Shown in pieces: positions 1,838 to 62,614 of a stretch of 64,000 nucleotides of DNA. The notes below the pieces were generated by a model. It was not told the origin of the DNA, searched no databases, and saw nothing but the letters and a program-made list of their open reading frames with translations. The stretch comes from Escherichia phage IME178. The translations under genes and the position numbers were made by a program. Each line of letters starts with the position of its first letter. Position 1 is the stretch's first letter. The DNA lies in sequence record NC_104190.1, one strand, 5' to 3'.

Positions 1838-2337
1838 ATTTATATTGAATTGAGAGACATTAGTAAAAATTGATTTTGCTAATTTTTCTTGTTTACAATC
1901 CGCGATACGGAACAGTTAGGCTGCCCCATTAAGGGTTGTTTTAACTGTTACATGTTAGTTTTTAAACAAATAGTTAATAGAATACTTAGCGATCTGCGCC
2001 CCATAGGAACCCTGGTAAGGCCTCGAAGCAACCTAGTATGAGGTGGTTGTGAAGTGAGATGGGAGGAGTGAAAAACTACCGAGACGTGATTCTGTAAGTT
2101 ATATTGCATCTAGTATGAGCTAGTATATGAAGCATTAGGTGAGCAAATCTGGCTTAGCGGCCATCCTCAAGGATTTGTGCGATATAGCAAAGCAGCAGCG
2201 CAGCGTGAAAGTGGAAGTTGCCACCCCACTTCAGTATTTGCGATTAATTTGTTGAGAAATTGACAGTAACAGTTGTTCTATTCTTTCTGAATAGTCCTAA
2301 AGAAAATTTATTTCATTTCCAACACAGGAGTATTGTT

Positions 2338-5127
2338 GTGTTCTCAATCCTACAAGGTCATGCAGGATTTCATCGCGATTTAGCCACAGGCAATTGGCGA
2401 GAAGTTAAAGCAGAAGATTATCTTTTTGCTAAAAGATTTTCCTCAAAGCATCCTGAAGGTAAACCAGCTTCAATGCCCTTCAAGTTTGATGTAATTGATG
2501 AAGTTGATCCTCAAACCCTAGTAGAAATGCTTCCTCTTATGAGACGTTTAACGTCTGACCCTCATATCGTTGCGGTACGAGGTAGATGTCTTGCACCTAA
2601 AAATAATGTGCGACGTAAGAAGGGCAACTTTAATGTATCTAACCCAAGTCATATAATTGCAATGGACGTGGATGGTATTGTGGATACAGGTGGTTGTAAC
2701 AAGTTTGATCTTGTTGGCATGGCTCGACATATTATTAGAATGTTAAATAGTATTAGTGAGGATATGTTTCCTCTTGATGCAGGGTTTATCGCTCATGCAT
2801 CGTCTTCGGCTGGGCTAAAACCAGGTATCCGAATGCACTTAATACTAGAATCTAATGTTAAAGTAACTCAGGGTCAAATCAAATTCTTATTTACATCTAT
2901 CAATGAAAGTAGTAGACAAAAGTATGGCTTTGATATTGCCGACTTAGCTTATTACTCTTCCGTACAGCTCCATTATTTTGCAGATCCGTTATTTACCGAT
3001 GGTATAGTAGATCCGTTTAAAGCGGAGGGTGCTTCACGTCTGGTATTTGTTAAAGGTTCTAAAGTAAATTTACCAAATAATCTGGTTGACTATGAAACAA
3101 CTAGAGGTGAGTTTAAGGAGGAGTTTTACTCTTTACTCGATCAAATTAAAGGTAAAAAAGCTGCCTCTGATAAAGTAGAGGAAACTATCAGCGAACTAGA
3201 AGAAGCTGAGGATGGGGTGTACTTGCGTATTATCCCCAAACTATACCATAGAGCATTAGAGGATGGTGTTGATTTTGCATGGCTAGAAAAAGAAATCCGT
3301 CCAGCCTTATCAGAATATATCGCAACTAAAGATAACAGTCGTAATATTCAAGATTACTTTAATAACGGTCGTAAACAGGCTCTGAAAGCATTTGTTAATA
3401 ATTCTAAACGCGATATACCTGATGTTTTAAAAGGTATTCCACTTAAAAAGCTAGAAACTAACTCCCTAGAAACTGATAACTTCTTGAAATTAAATACTGT
3501 GCCACCAGAAGGTTATATGACTTTTGTAAAAGCAAGTCTAGGTACAGGTAAAACCACGGCGGTTGTGCGTTGGTTAGATTCAGGAGTTATTAAAGGTAAT
3601 TTCTTAGCAATTACCAATACTAGAGCGCTGGTGTCTTCAAATGCTAAGAAATTCAGTGCAGGACAATATGATAAGTCTGTAGATATGCTTAATTTTAAGC
3701 GTGGTGCTATTGACCGTATGTCCACAACTATTCACTCTTTGCATAAGTTCAAGAGTTTTATTGGTCAAATTGATGCAATCTTTATCGATGAATGTGATGC
3801 TGTAATGAATGACCTGTTATTCGCCCCGGTTGTTAAACAACGTCGTGAGTGTATTCAGGTTCTTCGGGATATTCTTGCAACTGCAAAAATCATTATATTA
3901 TCAGATGGTGATATTAGTGCAGAAACAATTGAAGCATATGGTTCCTTGATTGAGTTTGATAAACCGGTTGCATTTTATAATCACCACCGTAAGATGTTGT
4001 CAAAAGCTCATGCTTATGAGTTCCCTGATGAATCCAGTATTTGGGTTGCACTTCAGACTTCTCTAGAGATGGGTGAGAAATCTATTCTGGTATCTGACTG
4101 TGGCCCTGATGAGCTGAATGAGAAGGGCATGGCATTACGTCGTAATACGGGTGCGTTAGTTAAGGAAATCCACTCAAACTCTACGTCTGATGTAGATATT
4201 CGACGTATTCTGGATTACACAACTAATGAGCTAATTGACCAACAAATTGATTGCTTATTATGTAGTCCATCCGTAACTAGTGGTGTTGACTTCAACTATT
4301 TTGATAACGTATTCGTTATTACTAGAACCAGCAACCAAGCGCCAAACATGCGTTTCCAAGCAATCAGGCGCGACCGTGGTGCTCAGAACATCTATTATTT
4401 TATTGATAAATCTACGAGTGGATTCTCCGCAGGTTCTGAACAATATAACATTGATGAAGGTTGGCTGGAGTTAGCACAGCAATTATACGCACGTCGCAGG
4501 GAGCTGGAATCTAGGAACTATACTAGTACTTTACGTTATTACTTGCTTGATCAGGGTGCAACTATTGATATTTTCAGTGAAAGCTGGGGAACTATCGAAG
4601 GTGCAGGCAAAGAGTATACAGAAGAGCGAATCAAAGCCATTTTGTATTCAACTCCTGATTATTGCGCTCCACGTCATGCGGATGCGTATGAAGCTAAACT
4701 ACTTCTTGTTCGCTACTATCATCTTGAGTCTATTAAAGATGTAACAGTTGAGCATGTTGAACAATATATCAAGGATAAACCGAATGATCGAGCTGCATTC
4801 TTCCATAAAATGCACGAGATGTTCTGGGAAGATATTAAGAAGTGTTCAAACGTCACTATCAAACCATTCATAGAAGCTCTGAAAGGTAAGAAGAAAGATT
4901 TCTTCCTTAAAACAGGTCAGAGTGCTAACCCAAAATATGCGAGAATGTATCTTGGTATGATGGGTATTGGTAAGGATATGAACACTGAAAATATTGTAGA
5001 CTGGTACAGAACCTATTGTAAAATCGAGTGTATGCCAATCCCATATAAGTTTATGACTGATGAGGAGAAACATATGCATGATGAAGCAATGGCAGAGCTA
5101 GGTGCTAGAAATGACAGTGAAGAATAA
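2338..5127 (+). CDS. putative primase-helicase: AEP-like primase domain fused to P-loop NTPase
   Basis: Long ORF (track 2260..5127); likely start GTG 2338 after RBS AGGAG. N-terminal IIAMDVDGI and GIRMHLIL resemble AEP primase motifs I/II; Walker A GTGKT and Walker B IFIDECD follow. Confidence 0.65.
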   Translation: MFSILQGHAGFHRDLATGNWREVKAEDYLFAKRFSSKHPEGKPASMPFKFDVIDEVDPQTLVEMLPLMRRLTSDPHIVAVRGRCLAPKNNVRRKKGNFNVSNPSHIIAMDVDGIVDTGGCNKFDLVGMARHIIRMLNSISEDMFPLDAGFIAHASSSAGLKPGIRMHLILESNVKVTQGQIKFLFTSINESSRQKYGFDIADLAYYSSVQLHYFADPLFTDGIVDPFKAEGASRLVFVKGSKVNLPNNLVDYETTRGEFKEEFYSLLDQIKGKKAASDKVEETISELEEAEDGVYLRIIPKLYHRALEDGVDFAWLEKEIRPALSEYIATKDNSRNIQDYFNNGRKQALKAFVNNSKRDIPDVLKGIPLKKLETNSLETDNFLKLNTVPPEGYMTFVKASLGTGKTTAVVRWLDSGVIKGNFLAITNTRALVSSNAKKFSAGQYDKSVDMLNFKRGAIDRMSTTIHSLHKFKSFIGQIDAIFIDECDAVMNDLLFAPVVKQRRECIQVLRDILATAKIIILSDGDISAETIEAYGSLIEFDKPVAFYNHHRKMLSKAHAYEFPDESSIWVALQTSLEMGEKSILVSDCGPDELNEKGMALRRNTGALVKEIHSNSTSDVDIRRILDYTTNELIDQQIDCLLCSPSVTSGVDFNYFDNVFVITRTSNQAPNMRFQAIRRDRGAQNIYYFIDKSTSGFSAGSEQYNIDEGWLELAQQLYARRRELESRNYTSTLRYYLLDQGATIDIFSESWGTIEGAGKEYTEERIKAILYSTPDYCAPRHADAYEAKLLLVRYYHLESIKDVTVEHVEQYIKDKPNDRAAFFHKMHEMFWEDIKKCSNVTIKPFIEALKGKKKDFFLKTGQSANPKYARMYLGMMGIGKDMNTENIVDWYRTYCKIECMPIPYKFMTDEEKHMHDEAMAELGARNDSEE

Positions 5128-57068: not shown

Positions 57069-57829
57069 AATATAGACTCCAGTTATTTGATGGATTGTTC
57101 CGCATTACCTGCTAGAAGGTAGCAGGTAATAAGTAACAATCCGCTCGCCAGTTTAATCAATTTAAAGAACTCCACGTAGGCCGCTATATCCCGTTAGGGG
57201 GCGGGGCGCATTATGGTAAGCACCGACCGTCAAATTTTATCAAGTTATCGCTCTTATCGAACTGGGTACATCTTAAAACCTATCGGCTAGGTTGTCAAAT
57301 AATTTTTTGCAGTTTTTTATGATTTTCTTTCAAGTCAATCATAATGTTTCGCCAGATCATTTCCAGACCTTGCTGGCGACCTTTCTTGTACTGCGTGAAT
57401 CTATATTTTACTGATCTTTGAGCTACTGTCAACAAATTTTTTTGTTTTGCTATCTAGTGCCTTAATAGGCTTGCCAGTGATCAAAAGCGTTTGTTTCATA
57501 TCGTCGATTCCTTATAATGAATAAGTTTACCGCCGATAGGCTTTAAGATATACCCAATTTTTTAAAGAGCGCGGCGGTAAACTTTCCGCCGTGTAGTTCG
57601 TCATTGCCGCCCTACGAGATAAATAATAACAAACAACGAAAAAAGGCGCAACCTTATTTTTGTAAAGAAATGTAAAGACACGATCCACCGAACGGCGTGC
57701 GGCGACGGCCTAAAATTAAAAGAAACGGGCGCGCGAATACCACAAAACAGAGCAAATAGGCAAGTAATTTTTTCATTTATATTTGCTTTGCCCTACTTGA
57801 CAAAATCTAAAAAGCTCGTGGCAGCGATA

Positions 57830-58320
57830 AACGGCTTATCCCCTTATGATGGGATGGCTAAAAACTTTATTGCGTTCTGGAGCGTTTTAGACGCATTCTA
57901 GCCCTGTTGATAACTTATCCCCAAAAGCAAAAATGAAATTTTCCTAGTTATCCACTTGACTTTTATTTTCCAGTGGATAACTACTTATTTTATGAAATAA
58001 ATTAATTGACTTTTGTTTGCTAGTATGTATCGGAAAGATAGCAGACTAATAATTGCTAGAATGATAATCATGCTGGTGGATTGTAACAGCGTAAACTATT
58101 AGCAGACTATTAATCACGGAAAATCTCATTAGCTAACTAACTATTTCATGTTATATAATATACATATAAATTAATGAGAAATAATAACTACAAGAAATCA
58201 TCTAGCTAAGTGAGAACCACTATCATTTAAGTTATCCACAACGTTATCTACAGCACAAAATAACTTGACACGATAGGCGGCGATATAAGGACTTTTGCAC
58301 AGACTTATCCACAGGTTATT
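57830..58320. promoter_or_regulatory. non-coding region with DnaA-box cluster and inverted repeats
   Basis: Exact TTATCCACA at 58232-58240 and 58305-58313; inverted TTATCCACT pair at 57948-57956/57972-57980; TTATCCCC half-boxes nearby. Confidence 0.55.
58131..58159 (+). promoter_or_regulatory. early-family promoter-like element (TATAAT at 58154-58159, conserved ATAAATTAATGAGAAA leader)
   Basis: Matches the conserved -10/leader motif; weak -35; about 450 bp upstream of 58608. Confidence 0.35.
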
Positions 58321-62014: not shown

Positions 62015-62291
62015 TAATCACGGGGCGCAACTATCAGGAAGTGCCCCCAATTGTCAAATGAGAATGCTTCTCATTTGACCGCGCCCGCGATGGTTAGCCT
62101 GCTAATGGTTAGGGTGTTACGTGTCGCCTTGTGTGATCGTTAGCGAGCTAACTAATTTCTAAGCCTCCTCCAATTTTGCCCCTGTTTTAGTATCCCCAAC
62201 AAAATTAAACGCGTTAGAATGCGATCTAGGACGTTTTAGCGGTATATTAGAATTATTCACTGCGTAGGAATACTGTATATTTGTACAGTAG

Positions 62292-62381
62292 GATAAGCTG
62301 TTGATAAGTCTGTTGATAACGCTTCAAAATGGCTAGGATTTTGTCAAGTCAAATCGTGCTGTTGATAAGTCTGTGGATAAC
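62292..62381. promoter_or_regulatory. duplicated GCTGTTGATAAGTCTGT(T/G)GATAAC element with exact DnaA box on the reverse strand
   Basis: Two copies about 60 bp apart; TGTGGATAA at 62372-62380. Confidence 0.5.
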
Positions 62382-62614
62382 TTAAATAATAGTGTTTCTC
62401 ACTTCCATTCTTGAATGATTCTCATTATCATTCGCATTTCACTATCTAACTAATAATCATTTCACTTTTTAAATGAGAATCGTTTCACTTCCTGAATAAT
62501 TTTTATTTCACTTTCTAAATACAAATCATTATCATTCGCATTCCGCTTTTTAAATGAGAATGATTCTCATTTTTATTCGCATTCAGGCGAGCAGGGCAAT
62601 TGCCCTGCGCTTTT

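Follow-up and report, generated by a model that had tools for sequence, protein, structure and literature searches.

The interval between an early promoter and the gene for the replication protein D2 in Escherichia phage IME178 very probably encodes an RNA structure under selection, judging from the pattern of changes among related sequences. The stretch analyzed here, termed the window, comprises 64,000 nucleotides (nt) of this phage (NC_104190.1), and all features are on its plus strand unless stated otherwise. It is the DNA of a T5-like phage (Tequintavirus): bases 1700-2400 are 98.6% identical to those of Escherichia phage T5_ev212 and are matched by 533 phage records. The interval lies in the gap between the gene for a 129-amino-acid (aa) DUF7415 protein (1325-1714) and a 929-aa gene, D2 (obp), which has a GTG start at 2338. 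An original prediction, made from the sequence of the window alone, had suggested that it may be a structured 5' untranslated region (UTR) or a small RNA. This suggestion is supported: structural conservation is strong and a bias towards G.U pairs places the structure on the D2-sense strand. The RNA is specific to T5-like phages, unannotated, and absent from Rfam.

Helices retained across unrelated leader sequences

The locus was taken from 35 viral contigs, nine metagenome contigs and several GenBank phages, which gave 40 distinct leaders at first; four GenBank loci were joined later. Across the Markadamsvirinae these comprise eight sequence types: type A, to which the window belongs; type B, that of T5, with Epseptimavirus; and the types of Yersinia phage phiR2-01, Klebsiella phage Sugarland, Eos, Pectobacterium phage DU_PP_V, My1, and the Providencia phages PR1 and PSTCR5. 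Most leaders are 471-497 nt long, while those with a 100-nt insert reach 591-595 nt, that of oselot 511 nt and those of the Providencia phages 612-616 nt. What the types have in common at the sequence level are islands: the L2 motif ACGGAACAGTTAGGCTGCCCC, the element (G)CTTAGCGG and few others; CUUAGCGG is present in every type, 224-240 nt from L2.

Pairing was assessed by an alignment-free test, in which the 40 nt after L2 were paired with the segment 90-140 nt beyond CUUAGCGG, and cognate strands were compared with strands combined across types. The cognate energies of the resulting long-range stalk, P1, range from -18 to -31 kcal/mol with a mean of -25.6, against -11.4 ± 3.3 for the cross-type strands of the 8 types, and the cognate partner is the best one in 8/8 types. 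The helices P5, H1 and P2 are likewise retained with different sequences: P5 and P2 in all types, and H1 with differing sequences in Sugarland, Eos, DU_PP_V, My1 and PR1.

The alignment termed A2 combines 15 type-A leaders with those of DU_PP_V and My1; its structure, predicted with RNAalifold, has 153 pairs in 22 helices. Double-sided changes are seen at 51 of the 153 pairs, as opposed to 10.0 ± 2.2 when columns are shuffled (0/500 shuffles reach 51) and 7-15 in controls with slid partners, and 96.6% of the cells in A2 are paired versus 36-50% after sliding. The T5-type set yields 28 double-change pairs against 7.9 ± 1.4. Individual positions illustrate the pattern: 11 sequences have G-C and 6 have A-U at both 1996:2201 and 1998:2199; 1947:2270 is G-C in type A, G.U in T5 and A-U in the other type B phages; and double changes at the first two pairs, as at 2065:2080, 2093:2194 and 2212:2228, occur among near-identical type-A phages, whose alignment is gapless. 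The comparison of structure and covariance with related phages, suggested along with the original prediction as a check on it, thus comes out in its favor, both in the helices kept by unrelated sequences and in the excess of double changes.

Two considerations temper this view. The covariation counts use a structure predicted from the same alignments and hence lean towards it, a weakness that the alignment-free test does not share; and the thermodynamic z-score of the window is modest, at -2.6. For the Vibrio phages such z-scores are uninformative; Vibrio phage PG07 (L074:1430-1600) has a ~60-nt direct repeat (GACTATCACTTTGTAGCCTCAATCCTCGGATTGTGTGAGTCAGTTAACTTCTGTCG, twice) upstream of obp, which accounts for its strong folding z-score on both strands.

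The strands of P1, as AT-rich inverted repeats of ~40 bp flanking a segment of ~245 bp, could also be taken for the MITE-like terminal repeats of a decayed mobile element, or the interval for a non-functional spacer; the core has been swapped between otherwise near-identical phages, and relatives carry an optional 100-nt insert and an HNH gene nearby. Terminal repeats, however, decay independently, whereas here both strands change together in 8 lineages, passing through a G-C/G.U/A-U series; moreover, the element is present in a single copy per genome at one locus, with constant internal distances and a 5' part that is better conserved than the flanking genes. A MITE-like element was rejected for its single copy at one locus and the joint change of its arms, and this very improbable reading as a whole is already contradicted, at the sequence level, by the compensatory changes.

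The strand and molecule that fold

P1 holds 2-8 G.U pairs depending on the leader and H1 holds three, and the corresponding minus-strand helices are weaker on average by 10.9 kcal/mol for P1, 7.4 for H1 and 3.5 for P5. These many G.U pairs and weak minus-strand helices exclude an antisense RNA and argue against a cruciform of duplex DNA or terminal inverted repeats. H1 starts 12-14 nt past the -10 element of the promoter (1809-1837) in all types; relatives bearing an HNH gene have a different promoter with the same distance to H1. Because the spacing of H1 is constant even under a replaced promoter, we conclude that the functional form, as predicted from these sequences, is a plus-strand transcript of D2 sense with a defined 5' end.

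A minor and quite unlikely alternative is that the unwound plus strand of the DNA adopts the same fold and provides an origin signal. There are models for this: the single-strand origins of rolling-circle plasmids, the minus-strand origin of M13, and the OriS* hairpin recognised by herpes UL9, a D2-like protein. Strand-specific pairing with G.T-compatible positions would equally suit plus-strand DNA, the adjacent gene codes for a UL9-like origin-binding helicase, and T5 origins have been mapped near the genome centre (bioRxiv 10.1101/866236). Against it, the promoter is fixed at 12-14 nt before H1 and has been recreated where an HNH cassette replaced the upstream DNA, which indicates a transcript with a defined 5' end; the 2-8 G.U pairs of each stalk would make the DNA form much less stable; and 22 helices over 440 nt exceed any known single-strand origin.

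Anatomy of the predicted RNA

The predicted RNA opens with H1, an AU-rich 5'-terminal hairpin of 16-17 bp (1852-1868 with 1874-1890) that begins ~8 nt past the predicted transcription start. It is followed by P2 (1895-1901 and 1904-1906 with 1928-1930 and 1933-1939), which has different sequences in all types and closes L2. The conserved element L2 (1907-1927) forms a small hairpin of its own (1909-1910 and 1913-1916 with 1920-1925), in whose stem a G-C to A-U change is visible in the type C sequence. In 32 viral and nine metagenome contigs, the L2 motif is present in a single copy per genome, always at this locus; scanning bacterial genome contigs for the pattern returned one match, in Arthrobacter, where an estimated ~2 are expected by chance.

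Next comes P1, a long-range, AU-rich stalk of ~41 bp formed by a 5' strand at 1942-1986 and a 3' strand at 2233-2275 (1942-1975 with 2242-2275, and 1980-1986 with 2233-2239). The stalk encloses a multi-helix core of ~245 nt (1987-2232). The core comprises a helix supported by RNAalifold and pair counts (1989-1999 with 2198-2206), a subdomain at 2000-2063, a hairpin at 2065-2080, a conserved single strand GAGACGUGAU at 2081-2092, a further subdomain at 2093-2194 that holds P5 (2143-2149 with 2172-2178) and the invariant mini-hairpin GGCUUAGCGGCC (2151-2162; loop UUAGCG at 2154-2159), and finally the L7 hairpin (2209-2231). By eye, a loop-loop contact between GGCUGC of L2 and GCGGCC of the UUAGCG hairpin seemed conceivable; it was dropped for its absence from type C and Eos.

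Beyond the stalk, a small 3' hairpin, CTATTC/GAATAG (2278-2294), has a counterpart CUAUC/GAUAG at the same place in type C, with weaker support than the other helices. The remaining segment (2295-2340) is an AU-rich tail that leads into the translation start of D2, with the Shine-Dalgarno (SD) sequence AGGAG at 2326-2330 and GTG at 2338, both SD and start being kept in all relatives. Some GenBank records open the D2 coding sequence (CDS) 26-32 codons upstream, in frame, within the stalk and the 3' hairpin (CDS from 2053 in L002 and from 1656 in L121; the corresponding open reading frame (ORF) of the window is 2260-5127). The true D2 start is likely the SD-preceded GTG or ATG common to all relatives, at 2338 in the window.

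Base composition follows this architecture. The leader had been called GC-richer than its surroundings, which holds for the core, whose GC content of 0.486 (1989-2231) falls within the top 1.7% of 243-nt windows, and not for the whole leader, at 0.389 against a window mean of 0.390. The hairpin and the stalk strands on either side of the core are AT-rich, with GC contents of 0.20-0.30.

Promoter, terminator and coding potential

The early sigma-70 promoter (1809-1837) consists of a -35 element TTGCAG (1809-1814), a 17-nt spacer and an extended -10 element TGaTATAAT, with TG at 1829-1830 and TATAAT at 1832-1837. Across the 8 sequence types its hexamers are constant and its spacer is variable. 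Both T5 records annotate a promoter at the equivalent place, one of them as 'putative early promoter T5P32', and neither has an annotated feature between it and obp. Early promoters of T5 have ATATT downstream of the -10 element (PMC7472727), and the promoter of the window reads TATAATATT; the transcription start is predicted at ~1844, and the distance from there to the GTG at 2338 is 494 nt. The originally claimed layout of a promoter followed by about 500 nt can hence be read directly from the sequence and agrees with the T5 annotation.

Upstream of the promoter, an intrinsic terminator of the preceding operon (1741-1768), found with an inverted-repeat scan, consists of an ACCGAG..CTCGGT hairpin (1741-1761) and a run of T. 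The hairpin is kept in relatives, and the T5 records annotate a rho-independent terminator at the equivalent site. A simple scanner overlooked both the promoter, whose -35 element matches at only 3/6 positions, and the terminator, which has a 9-nt loop.

The gap ranks second in size among the ORF-free stretches of the window. The ORFs within the leader are all of 53 aa or fewer, mostly with TTG or GTG starts, and none is conserved in frame or position across the types, so the further claim that this region has tiny ORFs and no convincing one is borne out. We consider it hardly credible that small genes have been missed here. The candidates would be a 50-aa ORF with a TTG start (1889-2041), a 38-aa ORF with a GTG start (2139-2255) and a 53-aa ORF on the minus strand (1948-2109); such ORFs do exist in the window, and for distant relatives the corresponding gap has been given tiny ORFs in some GenBank records. 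Yet the ORF is absent from T5-type leaders, though the first 100 nt are identical, the TTG and GTG starts lack an SD sequence, and translated similarity is found only where the nucleotides are conserved. In Vibrio phages, tiny ORFs of 29-77 aa, one of them antisense, are annotated within the equivalent non-coding region (D145, L073:1308-1932; L072:1626-1859); these are probably spurious calls over structured RNA. A structured RNA would likewise explain the spurious small ORFs and the extended D2 starts that annotation pipelines place in the gap.

Searches for known RNAs were negative. Rfam 15, scanned in E-value mode over 1500-2700, gave a chance match to a snoRNA only (E = 8.4); eleven related loci gave nothing relevant, and the whole window gave no match at the gathering thresholds. 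ARAGORN found no tRNA or tmRNA gene in the whole window, in line with the remark in the original prediction that tRNA-like features are absent. The literature we searched held neither a description of this RNA nor a T5 transcriptome.

Distribution and modular exchange of the element

The element adjoins obp/D2 throughout the Demerecviridae, including cases with a different upstream gene; in distant members an ORF-poor region of 640-1600 nt lies beside obp, again also where the upstream gene differs. Among these, the upstream region of Aeromonas phage TS3 carries a UUAGCG hairpin, and in a comparison of Luma with PVo5, 0/13 substitutions in predicted pairs break a pair.

Closer to the window, conservation is uneven. 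Between the window and T5, identity is 100% over the 5' 108 nt of the leader and 86% in D2, while the core (compared over 1952-2265) reaches only ~59%, which makes it effectively unalignable between flanks of 90-100% identity. As these breakpoints fall within the long stalk P1, the core is exchanged as a module. Two core versions, A-like and T5-like, exist within one genus, and the T5-like version shares motifs with the Providencia phages.

Other variations are local. Some leaders of type A, type B and the phiR2-01 type have an optional insert of ~100 nt (AGTGAAGCTGACAAGGGATTTACGGCGAGAGGAATCGATGACC...) that separates H1 from P2, at a point equivalent to 1890/1891 of the window. The insert is bordered by a duplication of TTTTTCTT and occurs at this locus only, once per genome (L013/L026/L035, L119:1165-1262, L121:1190-1287); it may add a hairpin module to the RNA or be a small insertion. 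In several relatives a gene for a 168-aa HNH endonuclease (Pfam HNH_3, 2.9e-11) lies just upstream of the leader (L029:838-1344; also L009, L016, L023 and L120), and L029 holds the promoter and H1 in two copies. The HNH insertion fits homing beside a highly conserved target. In Salmonella phage oselot (L002:1670-1700), the 3' strand of H1 is lengthened by three tandem copies of GCTAATTTT, noted as a 'repeat_region' in the record, within its leader of 511 nt.

Relation to D2 expression

The main rival to a role in replication is a purely cis-acting leader of D2, that is, a folded 5' UTR that controls the stability, processing, Rho sensitivity or translation of the message, for instance through autoregulation by D2 or another early protein bound to the conserved loops, or by timing the synthesis of the initiator. 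We hold this to be possible, if rather doubtful. In this phage, as in the types of T5, Epseptimavirus, Sugarland and Eos, transcription reaches D2 only through the element, with neither a terminator nor a second promoter in between; stabilised messages typically begin with a hairpin; a G-rich, C-poor and highly paired leader would resist Rho; and, in an alternative given by RNAalifold, 1902-1908 would pair with 2330-2336, which lies between the SD sequence and the start codon. That alternative, however, is absent from DU_PP_V and My1 and competes with the covarying P2. The D2 start is not specifically occluded either, its probability of being unpaired being 0.2-0.48 against a leader mean of ~0.36, so that it is no more paired than the leader overall. 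Furthermore, a multi-junction fold of ~440 nt with a closing stalk of ~41 bp far exceeds known operators. A riboswitch or attenuator platform was rejected as there is no intrinsic terminator and as the pairing of the SD-start region does not exceed the leader average in nine types.

Several relatives provide D2 with what may be its own transcription start. Proteus phage Stubb has a second consensus promoter (12/12) directly before D2, downstream of an architecture with H1, an L2-like motif, an AU-rich long-range stalk of ~30 bp and the UUAGCG hairpin. Both Pectobacterium phages have a promoter-like site (10/12) within the 3' strand of the stalk. All three retain the element, which speaks against a purely cis-acting leader. 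In Vibrio phage D145, tandem terminators close the region before obp, which thus has terminators on both sides. Since relatives have an extra promoter, a promoter-like site or a terminator before the helicase gene, we lean towards a separable RNA on these sequence features. Given the unoccluded start, the promoter of Stubb, the Pectobacterium sites and the arrangement in distant Demerecviridae and D145, we would argue that the element is more than a translational operator.

A separable RNA need not be connected with D2 at all. It could act in trans as a non-coding RNA or a scaffold of a ribonucleoprotein unrelated to replication, adjacent to D2 by linkage only: it might divert a host nuclease or defence system as a decoy, titrate an RNA-binding protein as a sponge, or be structural in the manner of other large phage-borne RNAs. 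The large multi-domain fold with invariant loops of a partner-binding kind (L2, UUAGCG and L7), the stalk that could free a discrete RNA, the terminator-bounded region of D145 and the swapping of A-like and T5-like cores as a module are all compatible with this. We nevertheless regard it as improbable: synteny with obp/D2 is family-wide, even with a different upstream gene; the conserved loops have no complementary target in the 64-kb window; and the RNA shows no similarity to ROOL, GOLLD, 6S, Y-like or other Rfam families.

A possible role in replication

D2 (2338-5127), annotated as a 'replication origin binding protein', is an SF2 helicase that matches Pfam Herpes_ori_bp, PHROG 3712 and NCBIfam CyRepA1, the last with a value of 4.7e-35 that lies under the curated cut-off of the model. 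The T5 protein is described as a bipolar SF2 helicase and a proposed replication initiator (PMC3632103). The label 'primase-helicase' given to the gene in the original prediction is therefore sound as regards the helicase and initiator part and unsupported as regards an N-terminal primase domain: the N-terminal region has no Pfam match and no PDB sequence match. An AlphaFold model of it from a single sequence has a pLDDT of 36, and the homologue search gave two fragments only.

The reading that we rank first, tentatively, is that of a replication-linked RNA module at the initiator gene: either a transcript of the origin or pre-primer type, or an RNA that partners D2. It is placed first because the element is tied to the initiator gene, because of its near-central position (the locus is at 48.9% of the T5 genome and T5 origins have been mapped near the DNA centre; bioRxiv 10.1101/866236), and because of the resemblance of D2 to CyRepA1. 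In the plasmid pSYSA, the RNA transcribed immediately before CyRepA1 'likely primes' replication, by a scheme resembling that of ColE1 (PMC9978351). The early sigma-70 promoter would drive the RNA, which in this phage would be co-transcribed with D2 because there is neither a terminator nor a second promoter between them. Host RNase III may then cut the long stalk P1; a flanking duplex of at least ~20 bp, as in stalks of the RNase III type, is present in 8 types, P1 having ~41 bp. Such a cut would free a stable core RNA of ~300 nt, and only a short AU-rich leader would stay on the D2 message; the freed RNA might help to start replication at the locus, in either of the two roles given above. 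More speculatively, and with considerable doubt, it may represent a new class of large phage RNA, a D2 partner that marks or primes the origin and is excised by an rRNA-like stalk, with counterparts upstream of obp throughout the Demerecviridae.

Several observations count against a role in replication. Every functional step above is inferred from sequence. The RNA is physically the 5' UTR of D2 in the window, with no terminator-like site between 1844 and 2337 and no second promoter, and might thus act on D2 itself. One study found T5 editing to follow the pattern expected of replication that proceeds mainly in one direction from one end (PMC10055335). The leader has short two-copy repeats at chance level and no iteron-like families in a scan for direct and inverted repeats, no DnaA box with one mismatch or fewer, no change of GC skew at the locus, and no promoter-like site on the minus strand in 1844-2337. 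The upstream regions of the Vibrio and Aeromonas phages are only candidate homologues, the UUAGCG hairpin of TS3 and the substitutions between Luma and PVo5 being the sole signs of homology. A double-stranded origin with iterons or DnaA boxes was rejected, the leader having neither repeat clusters nor DnaA boxes. So was a countertranscript of the ColE1 type, for want of an antisense promoter-like site in the leader of the window; a minus-strand promoter-like site occurs in DU_PP_V only and is not conserved.

Comparison with known systems

RNA II of ColE1, whose fold matters, is several hundred nt long and is transcribed in a replication-control locus from a strong promoter of the sigma-70 type. 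The RNA described here resembles it and the ssr7036 transcript of pSYSA in its length of several hundred nt, its promoter of the sigma-70 type and its place at a replication-gene locus, and resembles the pSYSA case further in lying directly upstream of a primase-helicase Rep protein to which D2 is similar by its NCBIfam match. Unlike in those plasmids, the window has no antisense promoter of the RNA I kind, and the T5 RNA continues into the initiator ORF; in addition, similarity is lacking both in sequence and in Rfam, and it is not obvious why a lytic phage would need to control its copy number.

The stalk P1 recalls another class of systems. In rrn precursors, RNase III excises the rRNAs through a stalk of the two flanks of more than 25 bp. 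By analogy, the flanks of a structured RNA here are predicted to pair over a long range (~41 bp) within a longer precursor; in contrast to rrn, the enclosed RNA is unrelated to rRNA and cleavage is only proposed. The early RNase III sites of T7 are local hairpins, whereas P1 pairs strands 300 nt apart.

The leaders of plasmid repA/repZ, of rne and pnp, and of T4 genes 32 and 43 are, like the present one, folded 5' UTRs before a gene with a nucleic-acid-binding product, which makes autoregulation plausible. Unlike them, this RNA is several times larger, has a closed multi-junction core, leaves the SD sequence unsequestered and is retained where D2 appears to own a promoter. With ROOL and GOLLD it shares a phage-borne origin, a length of several hundred nt and a complex fold supported by covariation; it differs in the lack of an Rfam match, in being located beside a replication gene rather than tRNAs, and in its confinement to T5-like phages. 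In T4 oriF and oriG and the primary origin of T7, a promoter and the leader of the downstream gene double as the origin, with the transcript used for initiation. These origins use a short DNA-unwinding element without a conserved RNA fold, whereas here it is the fold that is conserved.

Even for a textbook phage such as T5, the annotation is blank between T5P32 and the initiator gene. A covariation-supported RNA of ~440 nt in that place would be a concrete, mutable object for studying the start of replication in T5-like phages or the control of their initiator. As a family of large structured RNAs confined to the Demerecviridae, it joins a short list of complex phage RNAs. T5-like phages are also common in therapy and biocontrol collections, where a conserved RNA, were it essential, would be both a marker and a constraint on engineering.

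Neighbouring genes and other features of the window

The genes upstream of the leader include one at 374-886 for a protein with a HAD domain of the 'Swiss Army Knife RNA repair' type (HAD_SAK_2, 5e-20), followed by two for paralogous DUF7415 proteins (899-1315 and 1325-1714). Synteny between the DUF7415 pair and the RNA holds in those close relatives for which the annotation was read, namely T5_ev212, oselot, Stitch, T5 and phA11. The DUF7415 proteins are candidate partners of the RNA.

Elsewhere, the ORF-free gaps that are among the largest of the window, 57069-58197 and 62015-62514, come with clusters of DnaA boxes at 57905-58313 and 62299-62380; the window as a whole has 30 such boxes against 18.8 ± 4.2 expected. 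The clusters at 57-62 kb fit the injection-stop region of the T5 terminal repeat (bioRxiv 10.1101/866236). The GC skew changes sign from positive to negative near ~24000 and back near 56-60 kb, and these changes presumably mark where plus-strand early genes and minus-strand late genes give way to each other.

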